Source of the DNA: Escherichia phage vB_Eco_SLUR75
Length of the DNA: 59,880 nucleotides
Reading direction: 5' to 3' (one strand)
Sequence record: LR025197.1
Under the pieces are notes generated by a model, which saw only the letters and a list, made by a program, of their open reading frames with translations, ran no database searches and was not told where the DNA came from. How positions within the stretch are numbered: the first letter of the stretch is position 1; every line of letters starts with the position of its first letter. Positions 2,655-13,278 of this stretch are shown here, in pieces. The translations under genes and the position numbers were made by a program.

Positions 2655-3047
2655 ATGCTATTAGTCGTCACCGGAGGTCGAGATTTTAAGCATGTGGAGT
2701 ATATTTATGCTCAATTGGATAAGCTGCATATGCAAAGAAGGATAACCACACTTCGCCACGGTGACGCTGACGGTGTTGACCGCATTTGCGCACAGTGGGC
2801 AGAGCGCAACGGTATTAAGACAGAAGCGTTCCCTGCCCCGTGGGACAATCTTTCCTTACCAAATACCAAGATACGGTATAACGCCAAGGGTGCTTATAAT
2901 GCACAAGCTGGCGCATACCGTAACCAATTAATGCTGAATACTGATCCTAAACCAGATCACGCTATTGTGTTTCCTGGCGGAGCTGGTACTATGGATATGT
3001 ACAGACGGATTAAAGCATCCGGTATTCCTTATACTTTAGCGGAGTAA
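2655..3047 (+). CDS. SLOG/LOG-like Rossmann-fold protein (130 aa)
   Basis: VVTGGRD near N-terminus, HGDADGVD, and VFPGGAGTMD resembling the LOG-family PGGxGT motif. Confidence 0.4.
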   Translation: MLLVVTGGRDFKHVEYIYAQLDKLHMQRRITTLRHGDADGVDRICAQWAERNGIKTEAFPAPWDNLSLPNTKIRYNAKGAYNAQAGAYRNQLMLNTDPKPDHAIVFPGGAGTMDMYRRIKASGIPYTLAE

Positions 3048-3050
3048 ATA

Positions 3051-3521
3051 ATGGCTGACGTTAAAACTATTGTTGATGCAATGGACGAGTCCAAAGACTG
3101 CCAACTGAAGAAGTCGTTTGAAGTAAAACAGGTTACAGAGACTCAGTTGGTCTGTAATTTTGCGCGTTATTGTGGACTGGGGCGCGGGAAAGACTGGAAC
3201 GGGCTTATTGTTATGCCCACATCGCAGATTCTCGTTTACGTCCGCAATATTGTAGAAGATCTTTTGCGTCTTCAAATAGATATTGGTGACGTAGAAATTA
3301 ACATGACTGCGAGCTCTACCATTGTGGTTAAATGGCAGTCGGGCGAGACACTGCGTTTGGAAGCGTGCCATTGTGCTAAGAGCCTACACCACCTGCGCGG
3401 TTGTCATTACCAGTTCGTTGGGTTTGTACATCCGCAAGGGTTAAGCGAGCGTACGGCGCTTGTAGCGCGTTTGCTGCTGCGTCCTTATAATAACGAGCCG
3501 GAAGTTATATACGAGGCATAA
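3051..3521 (+). CDS. Hypothetical protein (156 aa)
   Basis: ORF packed directly after the upstream gene; no recognisable motif. Confidence 0.5.
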   Translation: MADVKTIVDAMDESKDCQLKKSFEVKQVTETQLVCNFARYCGLGRGKDWNGLIVMPTSQILVYVRNIVEDLLRLQIDIGDVEINMTASSTIVVKWQSGETLRLEACHCAKSLHHLRGCHYQFVGFVHPQGLSERTALVARLLLRPYNNEPEVIYEA

Positions 3522-3522
3522 A

Positions 3523-3948
3523 ATGTCAGTAAATTTTGTCAAACAGCCAACTTTAAATACATGCGTTTCTGCGTGTTTGGCAATGATCCTTAATAAACCT
3601 GTCGAAAAGGTCATTGAGGAATTTCATAGTCGTTATTATAACAACTGGGAAATCACTATCAGCGAATATTTGACTAAAAACGGCGTCCCGCATCATTGTT
3701 CAGAAGGTGGTGGGCGTGAAACTTTGCATATGGGAGGTTTGTTCCTGTGCACGGTGCCAAGTCTTAATATTCCTGGCGCATTGCACCAGATTGTGATTGA
3801 TATGACAGATCACAAGTTTATTGTGCATGATCCAATTAAAGGATGGGAAGGTAAAAAGTTCTATGTTGGTCCGGATCAAGATCCTGAAGAGCCTGGAGCT
3901 TTTATCATTCATACTTGGGTCAAAGACGTTGAAATCCTGCCTTATTAA
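3523..3948 (+). CDS. Putative papain-fold cysteine peptidase, C39-like (141 aa)
   Basis: N-terminal QPTLNTCVSACLAMIL resembles the C39 catalytic Cys signature; candidate His in HKFIVHDP. Confidence 0.4.
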   Translation: MSVNFVKQPTLNTCVSACLAMILNKPVEKVIEEFHSRYYNNWEITISEYLTKNGVPHHCSEGGGRETLHMGGLFLCTVPSLNIPGALHQIVIDMTDHKFIVHDPIKGWEGKKFYVGPDQDPEEPGAFIIHTWVKDVEILPY

Positions 3949-4010
3949 TTTTCTTGCTATCACATAACCCTTCATTGTATTGTGTACCCATCGAATAAGA
4001 GGGGTACACA

Positions 4011-4196
4011 ATGACCAAACTATACGCCGGATTGTTTTTATTTGCGACGTTAATGTTCGCTGGGCTTTATACCTATACAGTAGTCGAACAAACTTCCACG
4101 GTTATCCGAATCTTTGCAAGTACAGGGCTTTGCATCTGTCTTATTCTATTTGTTTTATGCATTGTTATTATCCAAGACCAAAGGAAAGTTAAATGA
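4011..4196 (+). CDS. Small membrane protein (61 aa)
   Basis: RBS AAGAGGGG; two predicted TM helices. Confidence 0.5.
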   Translation: MTKLYAGLFLFATLMFAGLYTYTVVEQTSTVIRIFASTGLCICLILFVLCIVIIQDQRKVK

Positions 4197-4657
4197 CCAC
4201 AATTGCGTTCGATGGAAAAGTATTAGCTGCGGACCGTGGAGTTATGCGCGGGGAAGCTGTGACTGCTTATAAGAAAGTTCATAGCGTGAATGGACATCGT
4301 GGACGGTTTTTACTTGGCTTGTGCGGTTTGACGGCATTTACCGATCAGGTGTTGCGTTATTTTAATAGCGCGGAACCTGTTAAGTTCCCTGATATTAAAC
4401 TTTACAGTAAAGATGATGATTACGGGCAAACTTGCGGTCTTGCTGTCACTCCGGAAGGTACTTGCCATTTTATTTATAATGATGGTACTTTGAGCGAGCC
4501 CATGCTGGATGGATGGGGATCTGAGGGTAGCGGTTGTGTGTTTGCCGCTGGTGCATTAGCCGCTGGTGCAAGCGCAAGCGAAGCTATTGAGCTGGCAATT
4601 AAACACACCACATGCGCATTCCTGGGAGTTGATACAATATCATTTGAGGGTTTTTAA
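4193..4657 (+). CDS. HslV/proteasome-beta-like Ntn-hydrolase (154 aa)
   Basis: Begins MTTIAFDGKVLAAD (Thr directly after Met, as in HslV TTIVSV...); Gly/Ala-rich GSEGSGCVFAAGALAAG...EAIELAI resembles the HslV C-terminal region. Confidence 0.45.
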   Translation: MTTIAFDGKVLAADRGVMRGEAVTAYKKVHSVNGHRGRFLLGLCGLTAFTDQVLRYFNSAEPVKFPDIKLYSKDDDYGQTCGLAVTPEGTCHFIYNDGTLSEPMLDGWGSEGSGCVFAAGALAAGASASEAIELAIKHTTCAFLGVDTISFEGF

Positions 4658-4918
4658 ATGACTACATTCAGTCACCTGATCCCACCTGCTTATCATAGTA
4701 AGGTAGTTGACCACGGGACGCATGTTGTAATTGGTGGCGAAATCTTTATCACAGATAACGAGGAAATCGCCATTGCAATTATTGACAGCACTCAGCATGA
4801 CTTTATGGTTATCCTGCAACACGAACCAGATAACTTCACTTTTTACTCCAGCTACGGGGTCGATAAAGGTGGAAAAAGCCTTGTTGCTTTCTACATTAAC
4901 GACTGGTTTGACGGGTAA
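4658..4918 (+). CDS. Hypothetical protein (86 aa)
   Basis: ATG immediately after the upstream stop. Confidence 0.45.
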   Translation: MTTFSHLIPPAYHSKVVDHGTHVVIGGEIFITDNEEIAIAIIDSTQHDFMVILQHEPDNFTFYSSYGVDKGGKSLVAFYINDWFDG

Positions 4919-5000
4919 TCTCCTTAGATCAATTCTTCTTGCGCCGTATCAAGTTTCTCTGTTACCCTTGAGTGGTTCATGTCAAGCGGAGGAACTCGAT

Positions 5001-5438
5001 ATGGCACTTCAACCTCGTGGTATTCGTAATAACAATCCAGGCAATATTCGCTGGGGTGACAATTGGCAGGGCTTAGTTCCTGCTGATAAGCGAACCGATA
5101 AATCTTTTGCGCAATTCACGCAACCGATTTACGGCATTCGTGCGCTAGCGAAAATCCTGACAAACTACACCAAACGTGAAGGCTTGCCCAATGTGGGTAA
5201 GAAAAACATCGACACTGTACGTGAAATTATCGCTCGCTGGGCACCGCCTAACGAAAACGATACGGAAGCGTATATTCGCTCTGTTGCCAAAGCAATTGGT
5301 GTTCAACCTAACGATCCAATTAATGTCTTCGACAAGGCAATTATGTCAGGATTGGTGAAAGCAATCATTCGTCATGAAAATGGCATGATGCCCTATACCG
5401 ATGACGTAATTAACCGCGCTATTGCAATGGTACTTTAA
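5001..5438 (+). CDS. Putative endolysin (145 aa)
   Basis: ATG at M91 of track ORF 4731..5438 with RBS GGAGGAA; sits directly upstream of holin/spanin genes; conserved GIRNNNPGNIRWG motif; followed by a terminator hairpin. Function is by context only. Confidence 0.35.
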   Translation: MALQPRGIRNNNPGNIRWGDNWQGLVPADKRTDKSFAQFTQPIYGIRALAKILTNYTKREGLPNVGKKNIDTVREIIARWAPPNENDTEAYIRSVAKAIGVQPNDPINVFDKAIMSGLVKAIIRHENGMMPYTDDVINRAIAMVL

Positions 5439-5442
5439 CTGA

Positions 5443-5465
5443 CGGGGCGTTAGCCCCTTTTATTT
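5443..5465 (+). terminator. Rho-independent terminator
   Basis: GGGGC-gtta-GCCCC hairpin followed by TTTTATTT. Confidence 0.6.
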
Positions 5466-5474
5466 GGAGGGAAC

Positions 5475-5819
5475 ATGTTCAATTCACCCAACGAACATTG
5501 GGCAGTTCTAGCGGGGTTTGCGTTTATCTCCCTCATTGGGGGAGCTCTCGGTTATGTCATGCGTACAATAGACGCTGGTAAGAAAGTACGGGCAAGCATT
5601 GCATTTCTTGAAGGCTTATCCGCCGCTTTCTTTGGCGTTATAATGTATGCGATCTACAGGGAGTTTAACATCAGCCTTTGGTTCGCTTTTGGCCTTGCTG
5701 GCCTATTTGCTTGGGCAGGTTCACGTGCTACGCTAAAAGCCCTAACGTCGCTTATAGCTTCACGGACAGGGATCAAACTCGATTCAGGGGACTGCAAACA
5801 TGAAAACGATTCTAAATAA
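5475..5819 (+). CDS. Putative holin (114 aa)
   Basis: Three predicted TM segments with a charged C-terminal tail; position in lysis cassette. Confidence 0.5.
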   Translation: MFNSPNEHWAVLAGFAFISLIGGALGYVMRTIDAGKKVRASIAFLEGLSAAFFGVIMYAIYREFNISLWFAFGLAGLFAWAGSRATLKALTSLIASRTGIKLDSGDCKHENDSK

Positions 5820-8565: not shown

Positions 8566-10062
8566 ATGGGTATTGATGCAACTCACCCGCTATATGACAA
8601 GTGGAAGGACGCATGGGTTAAGTGCAACGACTGCTATGAGGGTGAAGATAAAATTAAGGAAGAAGGTGTTAAATATCTACCACCTTTAGCTTCCATGATT
8701 ATTGATGGGATGAATAATCCTAATGATTTGGGCTTTCAACGTTGGCTCGCTTATCGTCTGCGTGCTAACTTCCCTGACGATTATTCAAGTGCGGTTACAA
8801 ACAATTTAGGTCTGCTACACCAGAAGCCTCCTACAATCCAGCTCCCACCTGAAATGGAATACATGCGGGAGCTGTGTACTGCGGACGGTGAAGACATTAT
8901 TGCTCTGCTACGTCGCATCAATGAAATGCAGTTAAAAAATGGACGTTTGGGCCTGCTGCTGGACTTGCCGAAAGGTGAGGATGTAAATAACAGACCTTAT
9001 ATTAGCGTTTATGATGCTTTATCCATTATCAACTGGGATGATGGTAAAGATGAATTGGGCAATATCAACTTGAACATGGTTGTTCTGGATGAAAGCGGTC
9101 CTGTACGTGTCAATCAGTTTGACTGGAAAGAAGAGAAGCGTTATCGCGTTCTACAATTAGGTCCAATGGACACAGATGAAGTAGCAGGTGGAGCGGTCTA
9201 CTCCCAACATCTGTTTATTAACAATACCAATTATGATGAAGGGCAAATGATTGCTCCTTATTATAAAGGTAATACGCTGGATGAAATTCCTTTCCAGTTT
9301 GTCAATACAACAGATATTACCCCAGCACCGGAAGCGCCGCCATTGTTGGGTCTTGCTAACATTTGTCTAAGCATGTACCGAAGTGACGCGGATTACCGCC
9401 AATGCTTGCATATGCAGGGTCAGGATACTTTAGTTGTTGTTGGTGGTTCCATGGAAAATGGAGATAAAGCCCCTCAGCGTATTGGTCCTGGTGCAGTCAT
9501 TAACGTTTCTCAGGGAGGTGACGCTAAATATGTAGGTGTTAGCGGTGACGGTTTGTCCGAGCAACGTCTCGCACTGGTAGCGGATAAGCAGGAAGCCCAA
9601 ATTAAAGCCGGGCAAATGGTAAACAATACCAAGAGTACGCAGGAATCAGGCGAAGCTATGAAAACGCGTATTGCTGCGCGTACAGCTAGTTTGATTCGGA
9701 TTGCGTATACTGGTGCGGCTGGTCTGGAAAACTTGCTGAAGGTTTGCGCTAAGTGGATGGGCGCTGATCCCGAGAAAGTTGTGGTTAAGCCTAATCTTGA
9801 ATTTACCAAGAGCATGTTTAACGGTCAGGACTTTGTTCAAATTATTACTGCACGCAACCTTAAGGCTCCGATCAGCTTGCAGTCTATTCATGGCTGGCTT
9901 GTTGATCAGGGCTTAACCACACTAAGCTTTGAAGAAGAAATGGCAATTCTTGAAGAAGAGCTTAAGAAGTGGCCTCTGCCCGATGATGCTAAAGCTGATT
10001 TAAACGCAGAGCAGCAAGTAAGCAAAGATCCTAAGGAAGACGACGCTTCCGATAAAGAATAG
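8566..10062 (+). CDS. Portal protein (498 aa)
   Basis: About 500 aa, between terminase and scaffold/capsid genes; acidic C-terminus. Confidence 0.75.
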   Translation: MGIDATHPLYDKWKDAWVKCNDCYEGEDKIKEEGVKYLPPLASMIIDGMNNPNDLGFQRWLAYRLRANFPDDYSSAVTNNLGLLHQKPPTIQLPPEMEYMRELCTADGEDIIALLRRINEMQLKNGRLGLLLDLPKGEDVNNRPYISVYDALSIINWDDGKDELGNINLNMVVLDESGPVRVNQFDWKEEKRYRVLQLGPMDTDEVAGGAVYSQHLFINNTNYDEGQMIAPYYKGNTLDEIPFQFVNTTDITPAPEAPPLLGLANICLSMYRSDADYRQCLHMQGQDTLVVVGGSMENGDKAPQRIGPGAVINVSQGGDAKYVGVSGDGLSEQRLALVADKQEAQIKAGQMVNNTKSTQESGEAMKTRIAARTASLIRIAYTGAAGLENLLKVCAKWMGADPEKVVVKPNLEFTKSMFNGQDFVQIITARNLKAPISLQSIHGWLVDQGLTTLSFEEEMAILEEELKKWPLPDDAKADLNAEQQVSKDPKEDDASDKE

Positions 10063-10157
10063 TTGCAACTTCCAAGTTGATTGGTTTATATTAACGAACA
10101 CGGGGCTGGGACGGCTCAGCTCCAAAAACGTCACACGGGTGACAACGGAGATAAGAA

Positions 10158-11030
10158 ATGAAAAAGAGTTCTGTAGCTATTAGTGTTGGTATGGCTTTAA
10201 TTAATCCACGCGCTCGCGGTGAAGGTGATGTGGAACTGGAATACGAATATGCATCTGAGGAAGAGATCCCGGCAGAGTTTGCAACTCTTTACGCAGAGCA
10301 GGGCGGTAAATACGTTCTTGCAAAAGTTAAAGGTGTAGCCCCTGCTGATAGCGTTCGTCGTCTGGAAAGTGCGTTAGCTAAAGAACGTAACGACCATCGT
10401 CAGGTGAAGCAACAGATTAGCGCACTTGGGCGTCCGGTTGAAGAAGTCCTTGCGGACCTTGATCGTATCCCTCAACTGGAAGCTGCCGCTAACGGTAAAG
10501 GTACTCCGGAAGACATCGAAAAGATGGTTAAAGCCCGTCTTGCTCCGCTCGAGCGTCAATTGCAAACTGTGGCAGCTGAACGCGATTCCGTTAAGCAGGA
10601 AATTGAAGGCTACCGCACTCGCGAAACTAAAGCGAAAATTAAAGACGCAGTTATTGCCGCTGCATCCGGTGCTAAGCTGCGTCCGTCTGCTATCGAAGAT
10701 GCGGTGACTTATGCACAGTTGCAAATGACAGTCGACGAAAACGGCAATGTGGTTACGAAAGATGGGGCGGGTGTAACTCCATACCTAACCCCGGCGGATT
10801 GGCTTAACGAGATCCTCCCGAAACGTCCTCACTGGGTTGAGGGTTCTGCTGGTGGCGGTGCATCTGGTCCGGGTGCTGGCGGTCATCACGGTGAAGACCC
10901 ATACAGTCACGACGGTTGGAACATCTCTAAGCAGATGAATCTCTGGAAAACTAATCAATCTTTAGCTAAACGCTTAGCTGAAAAGAATGGCGTAGATCCG
11001 CTGAAGCCTGTACGTCCTGCTAAGAAATAA
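10158..11030 (+). CDS. Putative scaffolding protein (290 aa)
   Basis: Charged coiled-coil protein between portal and major capsid genes. Confidence 0.55.
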   Translation: MKKSSVAISVGMALINPRARGEGDVELEYEYASEEEIPAEFATLYAEQGGKYVLAKVKGVAPADSVRRLESALAKERNDHRQVKQQISALGRPVEEVLADLDRIPQLEAAANGKGTPEDIEKMVKARLAPLERQLQTVAAERDSVKQEIEGYRTRETKAKIKDAVIAAASGAKLRPSAIEDAVTYAQLQMTVDENGNVVTKDGAGVTPYLTPADWLNEILPKRPHWVEGSAGGGASGPGAGGHHGEDPYSHDGWNISKQMNLWKTNQSLAKRLAEKNGVDPLKPVRPAKK

Positions 11031-11152
11031 GTTGACATCCCGACGTCCCTGATGTTAAGTTTCAACACATCAGGGACACGGGTTCCTAAACAGCCTTCCA
11101 CGGGGAAAGGCTACCAACAGTAAACAAATCAATCCTTTTCCTGGAGACAAGT

Positions 11153-12214
11153 ATGTCTAAATCTAAAATTATTCTGCCATTTGGTCGTGGTGAAACTGAC
11201 CTAACTCGTTTGACGGATGTCATTGTCCCTGAGATCTTCACTGGTTATGTGCAGACGCAGACCGCTGAACTTTCTGCCCTGATTCAATCCGGTGCGGTTG
11301 TGATGGACGAGCGTTTATCAGCTAACCTTGCTGGTGCAGGTCTGACTTTTAACGAGCCGTTCTATAACGACCTGAAAGATGAAGACGAAGATATCGCGGT
11401 TGATAAAGGTAATCCGTCAAAACCGTCTAATATCACTACCGGATCTGAAGTTCAGGTTCGTATGAGTCGTTCAAAATCCTGGGGTTCTGCGGATCTGGTA
11501 TCAGCTTTGATCGGTAACGACCCAATGACCGCTATCGGTAATCGCGTGTCTGCGTGGTGGGTTCGCCGTCTGCAAGCTGCATACATCGCAACCTGGAAAG
11601 GTGTATTTGCTAATGCGAAGAAATCTCATAACGACGATTTGACTTTCGACATTTCTGGCGAGTCCTTTACGAATAACCAGACCAACTTTACCGCGTCTAA
11701 CTTCATCAACGCAACTGCAACGATGGGCGATGCTGCTCGCGGTCTGACCATGATTATGGTACACTCTACCGTTCGTAACCGTATGCGTCAGTTGAACCTG
11801 ATCGACTTCATTCCAGATGCTCGCGGTGAAACTCAGTTTGAGTATTATCAGGGTCTGCGTATTATTGAAGACGACTCCATGCCGCACGATCCGTCTACTG
11901 GTGTGTTTGAAAGCTGGCTGTTCGGCCCGGGCGCGACTGCAATGGGTGCTGGATCACCGAAAGTTCCGACCGCTGTGGTGCGTGACGAAGCCGCTAACCA
12001 AGGCGCTGGTGAAGAAGTTCTTCACAACCGTGTTGAATGGATTCTGCATCCAGTTGGTCATGCTTGGGCTGCTGCTCAAACTGCTAAAGGTGGTCCGTCT
12101 AACGCTGCTACCACTAACAACCTGGCCCATGAAGATTCCTGGCGTCGTGCGTTCCCTGAGCGCAAGCAGCTTAAAGTTGCACGCCTGATCACTCGTGAGT
12201 ATCAGGGTTCCTAA
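11153..12214 (+). CDS. Major capsid protein (353 aa)
   Basis: Position after scaffold; flanked by a TTGACA-plus-hairpin element upstream and a terminator downstream. Confidence 0.7.
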   Translation: MSKSKIILPFGRGETDLTRLTDVIVPEIFTGYVQTQTAELSALIQSGAVVMDERLSANLAGAGLTFNEPFYNDLKDEDEDIAVDKGNPSKPSNITTGSEVQVRMSRSKSWGSADLVSALIGNDPMTAIGNRVSAWWVRRLQAAYIATWKGVFANAKKSHNDDLTFDISGESFTNNQTNFTASNFINATATMGDAARGLTMIMVHSTVRNRMRQLNLIDFIPDARGETQFEYYQGLRIIEDDSMPHDPSTGVFESWLFGPGATAMGAGSPKVPTAVVRDEAANQGAGEEVLHNRVEWILHPVGHAWAAAQTAKGGPSNAATTNNLAHEDSWRRAFPERKQLKVARLITREYQGS

Positions 12215-12245
12215 GGCTTCACTCAACGCCGCGCTGTAGTATTTT

Positions 12246-12272
12246 GGGGACATCTTATGTCCCCTCTTTTTT
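12246..12272 (+). terminator. Rho-independent terminator after capsid gene
   Basis: GGGGACA-tctta-TGTCCCC hairpin followed by TCTTTTTT. Confidence 0.6.
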
Positions 12273-12284
12273 AGGAGAACAACC

Positions 12285-12608
12285 ATGCGTTATCAACGTT
12301 ATGAACGACATGACTTGATGGAAAAATCGTTGCAGGTGGAGCCAATTTCAATTACTCTCGATCCTGCTACGATTGACACCACAACTTCAGAAGTAAAAAC
12401 GGTTACTGTTAAAATAAACTTTGTCCCAGGCGGAACTACAAACAAAGCGTATAGCGCGTCAGTTGACGGTTCCTCTGCTACAATTAAAGACAACGGGGAC
12501 GGTACAATTACTGTGACCACAACCGAAAGCAGTGGTACTTCAAACTTGACAGTAACGTCCAAGGCAAAGGATAGTGTTACTGGTACATGTGTTATTAATG
12601 TGACCTAA
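12285..12608 (+). CDS. Ig-like (Big_2-type) domain protein, likely capsid decoration (107 aa)
   Basis: Thr/Ser-rich beta-strand pattern VTVKINF...GDGTITVTTTESSGTSNLTVTSKA typical of bacterial Ig-like domains. Confidence 0.55.
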   Translation: MRYQRYERHDLMEKSLQVEPISITLDPATIDTTTSEVKTVTVKINFVPGGTTNKAYSASVDGSSATIKDNGDGTITVTTTESSGTSNLTVTSKAKDSVTGTCVINVT

Positions 12609-12624
12609 AAATAAGGATTAAACA

Positions 12625-13278
12625 ATGAAGACATTAATTGAAGCATTGTTAGAACTTGATCCGGATAACCCGAATCATTGGACTAGCGACGGTCTACCTA
12701 AAGTTGACGCTCTGCGTTTCGCTACCGCTAACCCGTCTTTAACCCGCGACGATATTACAACTGCTGCTCCGCTGTTTACCCGCGATAACCGCGTGCTGGA
12801 AGAGCCCGAGGCAGTGGAACCTGTTAAATCTGCTGATCCAGTTTTACATGAAGCTGTCAAACAGGAGAAAGCTCATGAAGAACAAAAGAAAGTCGCGGTT
12901 GCAACGATGCAAATCGAAGTTAAGATTAGCGAAGCACTGCGTGCTCTTCTGGAGCCGGAAAAAATCGGTGACGCTTCCAGCTTAACCGATGAAGAACTCA
13001 AAGCGAAGCGCGAAAAGCTTAGCAATGTGGTTAAAGAGATTGCCCACACTAAGCACGCGTTGGAGCTCGCTATCGCAGACGTTCAAGCGGATCTGGATAA
13101 GATTATCGTTGAGCAGGAGCGTCGTCGTCCTAAGTCCGGTCTTACTGCAACTCAGATGTATCTTGAAGCGCAGAAAAAACGTAAACCGGAAGACATGCTT
13201 TCTGACCATCGCTTCCAGAACCCTATTGACGATCCGGTCGCCCGTATGGTTGCACGTAATATGATGCGTCGAGGTTAA
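12625..13278 (+). CDS. Hypothetical head-associated protein (217 aa)
   Basis: In structural module; charged coiled-coil. Confidence 0.45.
   Translation: MKTLIEALLELDPDNPNHWTSDGLPKVDALRFATANPSLTRDDITTAAPLFTRDNRVLEEPEAVEPVKSADPVLHEAVKQEKAHEEQKKVAVATMQIEVKISEALRALLEPEKIGDASSLTDEELKAKREKLSNVVKEIAHTKHALELAIADVQADLDKIIVEQERRRPKSGLTATQMYLEAQKKRKPEDMLSDHRFQNPIDDPVARMVARNMMRRG

Follow-up and report, generated by a model that had tools for sequence, protein, structure and literature searches.

A predicted stand-alone C39-like peptidase and an HslV-like protein of the PPH family encoded upstream of the lysis genes of Escherichia phage vB_Eco_SLUR75

The DNA analysed here is a 59,880-nucleotide stretch of Escherichia phage vB_Eco_SLUR75 (record LR025197.1), referred to below, at its full length, as the window. 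It is a Seuratvirus (Queuovirinae) genome, and over bases 3000-5500 it shares 98% identity with Escherichia phages KS_A8, CAjan and Seurat. An initial annotation, made from the sequence, had described two peptidase-like proteins at this locus, a C39/papain-fold cysteine peptidase and an HslV-like N-terminal-nucleophile (Ntn) hydrolase, with a small protein carrying two transmembrane segments encoded between them. All three open reading frames (ORFs) are present, and the two peptidase-like ones are conserved, with matches to phrog_4049 and phrog_1040 (lengths are given in amino acids, aa):

3523..3948, + strand: 141-aa ORF, predicted C39-like peptidase; QPTLNTCVSACLAMIL corresponds to residues 8-23
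4011..4196, + strand: 61-aa ORF, predicted two-transmembrane protein
4193..4657, + strand: 154-aa ORF, predicted PPH/HslV-like protein; begins MTTIAFDGKVLAAD

The ATG of each ORF is preceded by a Shine-Dalgarno (SD)-like purine run (GAGG, GAGGGG and AAGGAAAG, respectively). The 61-aa and 154-aa genes are joined by an ATGA overlap, and an 86-aa gene begins directly at the base that follows the stop codon of the 154-aa gene.

A search of PHROGs matched the 141-aa protein to phrog_4049, a family of 'unknown function' (E=9e-58). The family was widened to 116 proteins by a profile search, and an exhaustive search yielded 823 cluster representatives (50% identity clusters, E≤1e-3), which is a lower bound; nearly all of them are stand-alone proteins of ~135-160 aa. 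In an alignment of 96 sequences His88, Asp103 and Pro104 are present in 96/96, while Gln8, Cys14 and Cys18 are each present in 95/96, the Gln8/Cys14 exception being an N-terminally truncated sequence. The conserved layout of the family is Gln-x5-Cys-x3-Cys ... His ... Asp-Pro. By position, Gln8 is the predicted oxyanion-hole residue, Cys14 the predicted nucleophile and Cys18 a second conserved cysteine, with His88 and Asp103-Pro104 as the other predicted sites. Nine of the 96 family members match Pfam C39 by themselves (E≤0.01; best E=2.4e-6).

The predicted structure of the 141-aa protein is papain-like, its closest folds being those of the double-glycine peptidase domains of PCAT1, ComA and LahT, and Cys14 is the first residue of a helix formed by residues 14-23. 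The structural neighbours, with their scores, are:

PCAT1 (C39 domain), 10.1
Streptococcus mutans ComA (C39 domain), 9.7
LahT double-glycine protease, 9.6
PeiR (pseudomurein endoisopeptidase), 9.3
3erv (putative C39-like peptidase), 9.2

Searches of PDB with the single 141-aa sequence and with a 10-sequence profile returned nothing meaningful. The 96-sequence profile produced a sub-threshold alignment to LahT (6mpz) in which Gln/Cys, His and Asp-Pro are in register; its best match in PDB was 9l5u, a fragment of a PAAR-like 'DUF4150 domain-containing protein' (E=0.059). Thus, the C39/papain-fold assignment of ORF 3523..3948 in the initial annotation agrees both with the predicted structure and with the retention of Gln8, Cys14, His88 and Asp103 in 95-96 of the 96 sequences. 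From sequence and model, we conclude that the protein is of the papain-fold C39 type with an intact predicted catalytic set, best called 'C39-like, stand-alone'. No ABC transporter was found in the annotated genome or near the C39-like gene.

The 154-aa protein matches phrog_1040, 'peptidase HslV family' (E=5e-32). A profile built from 18 homologs was used to search PDB and retrieved HslV of several species (best E=3e-8), the beta-proteobacterial proteasome homolog BPH, and 20S beta subunits of archaea and eukaryotes. In the hidden Markov model (HMM) alignment with HslV, Asp14 corresponds to Asp17, Lys28 to Lys33, Gly45 to the oxyanion glycine (Gly47) and Gly112-Ser113-Gly114 to the GSGG loop; Thr2 is the equivalent of Thr1. 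The initial annotation had pointed to a threonine directly after the initiator methionine, and Met1-Thr2 is indeed kept in 18/18 homologs, which were collected without using the N-terminus. Among 76 unique viral sequences Asp14, Lys28 and Gly112 are each kept in 76/76 and Gly45 in 75/76; in this larger set the search pattern itself included the N-terminal residues, and conservation of Met1-Thr2 is circular there. The homologs are 143-206 aa long and are found in viral contigs. Both peptidase-like proteins belong to widespread phage families, and their homologs reach ~30% identity with motif residues still kept.

The AlphaFold2 model of the 154-aa protein (predicted local distance difference test score, pLDDT, 94.9) was matched by Foldseek to HslV, BPH and 20S beta subunits with probability 1.0, at 17-20% identity to HslV structures. 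The protein has no propeptide, and its fold is the Ntn beta-sandwich known from HslV, BPH and the beta subunits of proteasomes. The only helices in the model are 47-58, 115-123 and 128-138 (H1, H3 and H4); residues 59-79 are coil, with no H2. These features match those of the published PPH family, whose members are ~140 residues long, occur in tailed phages and prophages, radiate from the BPH/HslV group, and have neither a propeptide nor the second helix (H2); the family was described by bioinformatics alone, and several of its homologs appear incompatible with multi-layered rings (Fuchs et al. 2021, Bioinformatics; PMC8665760). For this reason the 154-aa protein was filed as a predicted PPH member and not as HslV proper, the assignment being made by the published description of the family, whose representative is WP_042125023.1. 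The HslV-like Ntn call of the initial annotation is thereby borne out at the level of the fold, by the profile and by Foldseek alike. For both proteins, HMM and structure searches recovered the proposed folds, with active-site residues conserved among homologs. The annotation of the KS_A8 genome, which is 98% identical, lists neither HslU nor another AAA+ unfoldase. Neither peptidase-like protein has a signal peptide or a transmembrane segment (19-residue Kyte-Doolittle maxima 1.3-1.4).

Database names for these products vary. Members of the C39-like family are usually annotated as 'hypothetical'; a UniRef relative, gp93 of Pantoea phage Vid5, is a 'Peptidase C39 domain-containing protein', and one GenBank record gives 'cysteine protease' for the product of the 141-aa gene, with the names displaced by one gene. 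GenBank and RefSeq already name the 154-aa product 'peptidase HslV family', 'putative protease' or 'ATP-dependent protease'. In the record of Escherichia phage CSP1C (PQ202980.1 51070-54851) product names are apparently displaced by one gene: 'cysteine protease' stands on the 61-aa membrane protein, 'HslV' on the 86-aa ORF, 'endolysin' on a holin-sized ORF and 'DprA' on a 156-aa ORF. Moved back by one gene, the names fit the neighbours (SLOG/DprA-like, type III secretion system chaperone-like, cysteine protease, hypothetical and HslV).

We next consider whether the two genes are linked. The order of a C39-like gene, one small gene and a PPH gene, upstream of lysis and terminase genes, is found in two genera, Seuratvirus and Nonagvirus (the latter with phage 9g, SE1 and relatives). 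Between these genera the PPH proteins are 32% identical, the C39-like proteins 38% and the large terminases 67%, with catalytic residues kept. A C39-like gene lies within 8 kb of PPH in 2/80 PPH-seeded viral loci, both from Seuratvirus, and PPH is present in 6/22 C39-seeded loci, all from Seuratvirus or Nonagvirus. General co-occurrence of the two families is ruled out by the former count, and the pairing of the enzymes implied by the initial annotation does not hold beyond this group: adjacency, as judged from these sequences, is limited to Queuovirinae. The differing middle gene and the small number of co-occurring loci speak against a functional link. The simplest reading is that the gene order reflects inherited synteny of two fast-evolving accessory genes and not a two-enzyme system.

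Outside Queuovirinae the two families are found in different settings. In Ackermannviridae (EP75, Marshall, Maynard and others) the C39-like gene is located between the genes for the large and medium subunits of topoisomerase II, with a 4-nt overlap with the medium subunit gene. In EP75 (our locus L005, 6059-9745) the homolog is 42% identical, and the large and medium subunits are 637 and 441 aa long; this topoisomerase/C39-like block is present, at a coverage of at least 80%, in 222 phage records. The homolog is a 'hypothetical protein' in Ackermannviridae records, one of which also lists a 'viral tegument-like protein' within the block. A Mu-like prophage on Methylophaga sp. contig NVWQ02000058.1 (L105, 4505-7672) carries a homolog of 37% identity between portal and MuF genes, overlapping both, that is, inside the head-morphogenesis module. 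On other contigs the C39-like gene stands beside ThyX or RusA.

The PPH gene is at most 4 kb from a large terminase subunit (TerL) or P22-like portal gene in 38/73 unique viral loci, and some PPH genes lie between TerL and portal genes in phages with a portal-scaffold-capsid head module (PPH-seeded viral loci L024-L103; examples are L031 6038-11606, L050 5498-11176 and L039 7210-10254). The TerL of L050 carries an intein-like insertion. No conserved partner of PPH, such as an ATPase, was found across the loci, the recurrent neighbours being terminase and portal genes. Neither gene has a universal genomic context.

In Escherichia phage SeppeHuegi (MZ501104.1 57319-58266; L110 1494-2441) the PPH start, which corresponds to window position 4193, is the exact insertion point of a homing endonuclease gene (HNH type, 156 aa). 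The endonuclease gene takes the ATGA-overlapped start codon and separates the two-transmembrane gene from PPH. Past its stop codon the PPH frame resumes as ...GGGGGTGGGTT ATC ACT ACT..., with codon 1 being ATC, not ATG, and codons 2-17 intact. The depositors annotate the PPH coding sequence from Met18, a start that would drop Thr2 and Asp14. Judging from this arrangement, translation of SeppeHuegi PPH would start at a non-canonical AUC preceded by a strong SD-like G-run; otherwise, this viable phage would have an inactive PPH.

The 61-aa protein has hydrophobic stretches at residues ~4-25 and ~34-55 (19-residue Kyte-Doolittle maxima 1.68 and 2.96), in line with the two transmembrane segments initially proposed, and matches phrog_22841 (E=2e-43). 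Its gene is specific to Seuratvirus; an unrelated, non-membrane 117-aa ORF occupies the position in the Nonagvirus locus L013. The two-transmembrane gene between the C39-like and PPH genes is read as a lineage-specific insert. The 62-nt gap that precedes it, downstream of the C39-like gene, contains one further element:

3978..4013, + strand: RNA hairpin with a 12-bp main stem

The hairpin has a dG of -20.1 kcal/mol (z=-3.97), and 0/200 shuffles fold as well. It pairs the SD sequence (GAGGGG) and the AUG of the two-transmembrane gene, which suggests an element of translational control or of RNA processing or stability.

The trio is part of a dense + strand gene string that reaches the endolysin gene (5001-5438), upstream of lysis and packaging genes. 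Past the endolysin gene there is a terminator-like hairpin at 5444-5457, followed by genes for holin, spanin and the small and large terminase subunits. The peptidase-like genes are on the same strand as the structural genes. In consensus scans promoter- and terminator-like sites were no more numerous than in shuffled sequence, and no terminator-like hairpin was found between ~3021 and 5438. Since the counts equal the shuffled expectation, the scans give no basis for calling the genes 'early' or 'late'. The initial annotation had placed the genes in an 'early region', a label left without support by these counts, by the strand and by the run of the genes into endolysin, holin and terminase. 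Searches of six local proteins against NCBIfam and PADLOC gave no significant match. Two genes upstream of the C39-like gene, at window positions 2655-3047, lies a gene for a 130-aa SLOG-superfamily protein (Pfam YAcAr / YspA-related, E=2e-18; PHROG 'GTP-binding domain'). Other Seuratviruses have an extra small gene between the 156-aa gene and the C39-like gene, at a point matching window 3521/3523: phage KS_A3 (L111 624-830, 207 nt) and phage Skure (L112 625-981, 357 nt). Gene boundaries here are insertion points for small accessory genes, and the neighbourhood is mosaic.

Taken together, the data are best accounted for, with good probability, by two separately evolving, soluble, cytoplasmic accessory peptidases of Queuovirinae phages and not by a two-part system. 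In the case of PPH, host methionine aminopeptidase would expose Thr2, whose hydroxyl and free amine would serve as nucleophile and base, as in HslV, by the Thr1/Lys33/Asp17 mechanism. PPH subunits may form rings that sequester the active sites. In HslV and proteasomes H2 mediates ring-ring contacts; because H2 is absent from the model, the assembly may differ from the HslV dodecamer, with altered ring stacking. The likely substrates of such an assembly would be unfolded proteins or peptides in the infected cell; the processing of host or phage proteins put forward in the initial annotation is a conjecture. The C39-like protein is expected, from its conserved residues, to use a Cys14/His88/Asp103 triad with Gln8 in the oxyanion hole, and would cleave one or a few cytoplasmic proteins at a specific site, after a Gly-Gly-type motif. 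Two cytosolic toxins of the C39 type, Cpe1 and StbD-CT, would point to GyrB and ParE, subunits of the type II topoisomerases of the host, as the most concrete candidate targets.

Several results weigh against this interpretation. Both proteins score below Pfam thresholds: C39 (PF03412) gives 14.2 bits against 22 for the 141-aa protein (E=0.04; residues 3-25 only), and Proteasome (PF00227) gives 15.4 bits against a gathering score of 22.4 for the 154-aa protein (E=0.015; residues 7-58 only). Foldseek TM-scores are moderate, ~0.5 for the C39-like protein and 0.57-0.69 (query-normalised) for the PPH model. No double-glycine leader-like motif was found in any window ORF of at least 30 aa. The literature search found no functional study of phage C39-like proteins, the KpAvs2/Seuratvirus paper dealing with the terminase, and none of PPH since 2021. 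With the endonuclease gene at the PPH start and ATC as codon 1 in SeppeHuegi, PPH expression may be reduced or dispensable in a viable phage. Finally, conserved adjacency in two genera, together with ATGA coupling, leaves some room for a functional link.

That room would be filled if the three genes, for the C39-like, small membrane and PPH proteins, made up one module, such as a processing or degradation system associated with the membrane. The gene order is kept in Seuratvirus and Nonagvirus despite 32-38% protein identity, the two-transmembrane gene overlaps PPH by ATGA, and insertions in other Seuratviruses lie outside the trio. However, the C39-like gene is missing from 78/80 PPH loci and PPH from 16/22 C39 loci, the middle genes are non-homologous (a 61-aa two-transmembrane protein in one genus and a soluble 117-aa protein in the other), and the homing endonuclease gene of SeppeHuegi parts the two-transmembrane gene from PPH; a single module is very unlikely. 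A different proposal concerns the host. Cpe1 and StbD-CT are interbacterial C39/papain-like toxin domains, ~140-150 aa long and active in the cytosol, which cleave LHAGG↓KF in GyrB and ParE (PMC12136450; bioRxiv 10.64898/2026.05.07.723447); the catalytic layout of StbD-CT is Gln177, Cys183, Cys187, His258 and Asp275 (bioRxiv 10.64898/2026.05.07.723447). By analogy with these domains, which have the same fold and a similar size and are cytosolic, the C39-like protein would cut this site in the ATPase domains of host GyrB and ParE and thereby stop host chromosome replication and segregation. Consistent with such a role, the spacings in the C39-like protein (Gln-to-Cys 6, Cys-x3-Cys, Cys-to-His 74, His-to-Asp 15) are near those of StbD-CT, the best family-profile match in PDB is the PAAR-like fragment 9l5u, and the gene is embedded between topoisomerase II subunit genes in Ackermannviridae, whose topoisomerase reads LYAGSNF where GyrB reads LHAGGKF. 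To our knowledge, however, T4-type topoisomerases generally lack the GG motif, and therefore its absence is no specific adaptation. PAAR, Rhs and CdiA carrier domains are absent from the ten longer family members scanned. Because transporter-type C39 domains are structurally at least as similar, other contexts (portal/MuF, ThyX, RusA) are unrelated to topoisomerases, and Seuratvirus has no annotated topoisomerase and hence might need host gyrase, we consider cleavage of GyrB and ParE unlikely. A fuller scenario, also built on analogy, would make the phrog_4049 peptidase a host-takeover enzyme cutting GyrB/ParE at Gly-Gly, co-expressed in large phages such as Ackermannviridae with their own cleavage-resistant topoisomerase II, and would independently assign PPH a late or morphogenetic role; we regard it, too, as unlikely.

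Either or both proteins might instead be late head-assembly or maturation proteases in phages without a canonical prohead protease. This would fit the location of PPH near TerL or a P22-like portal in 38/73 loci, sometimes between them, the C39-like gene between portal and MuF in the Mu-like prophage, and the placement of the peptidase genes on the strand of late genes. In addition, a canonical prohead protease was not detected by Pfam at window 8566-13278, which covers the portal gene (DUF4055 type) and the next four ORFs (scaffold, major capsid and two more). But P22-type portal-scaffold-capsid modules need no protease, terminase-adjacent regions commonly gather accessory genes, and neither gene is at the canonical portal-protease-capsid position. 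The C39-like gene is among replication genes in Ackermannviridae, and SeppeHuegi is viable with a disrupted PPH start. A morphogenetic function is accordingly judged distinctly improbable. C39 enzymes and deubiquitinases (DUBs) both cut after Gly-Gly, and the C39-like protein could be a DUB-like isopeptidase that strips ubiquitin-like or C-terminal-glycine conjugates of host defences (Bil-type, CBASS Cap2-type); the varied genomic contexts would suit a mobile counter-defence gene. DUB-type folds nevertheless score below C39 domains, neither a PADLOC match nor a linked defence-related gene was found, and the literature yielded no published example, which leaves this function with a slim chance of being correct. 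Finally, one or both proteins could be catalytically inert binders or decoys, with PPH, for example, titrating host HslU. PPH is trimmed (no H2) and below the Pfam threshold, and the SeppeHuegi variant may lose the N-terminal threonine if translation begins at Met18. Catalytic residues, however, are kept in both families across ~30% identity; such conservation is not expected for decoys, making an inert role extremely improbable.

If two independent accessory peptidases are indeed encoded here, what is new is modest: a linkage confined to Queuovirinae, the setting of the C39-like family in a topoisomerase operon, and the terminase/portal neighbourhood of PPH. Few phage-encoded proteases have known targets. 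The two predicted enzymes are compact and their active sites intact. They come from a group of E. coli phages that is well studied and has members in the BASEL collection, and genetics should therefore be easy. PPH is the only primarily viral branch of the proteasome family. Cleavage of GyrB and ParE by the C39-like protein, if true, would be a new mode of host shutoff and would connect phage genes with interbacterial toxins evolutionarily; otherwise, these are ordinary accessory genes.

Compared with the C39 domains of transporters (PCAT1, ComA, LahT), the 141-aa protein differs in being stand-alone, phage-encoded and predicted cytoplasmic, and in scoring below the Pfam gathering threshold. 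Its similarity to Cpe1 and StbD-CT is no closer than that to the transporter domains; in contrast to those toxins, it has no carrier domain in the ten longer family members, nothing marks a neighbour as an immunity gene, and the downstream genes vary by lineage. The 154-aa protein is ~20 residues shorter than HslV (ClpQ), has no H2 and is below the PF00227 threshold. It resembles HslV in the MT- start with threonine as the predicted N-terminal nucleophile, in the Asp, Lys and oxyanion Gly, and in a GSG loop followed by an Ala/Gly-rich helix. No difference was detected between the 154-aa protein and the PPH family, the two having in common their size, phage origin, predicted catalytic set, lack of a propeptide and of H2, and kinship with HslV and BPH.

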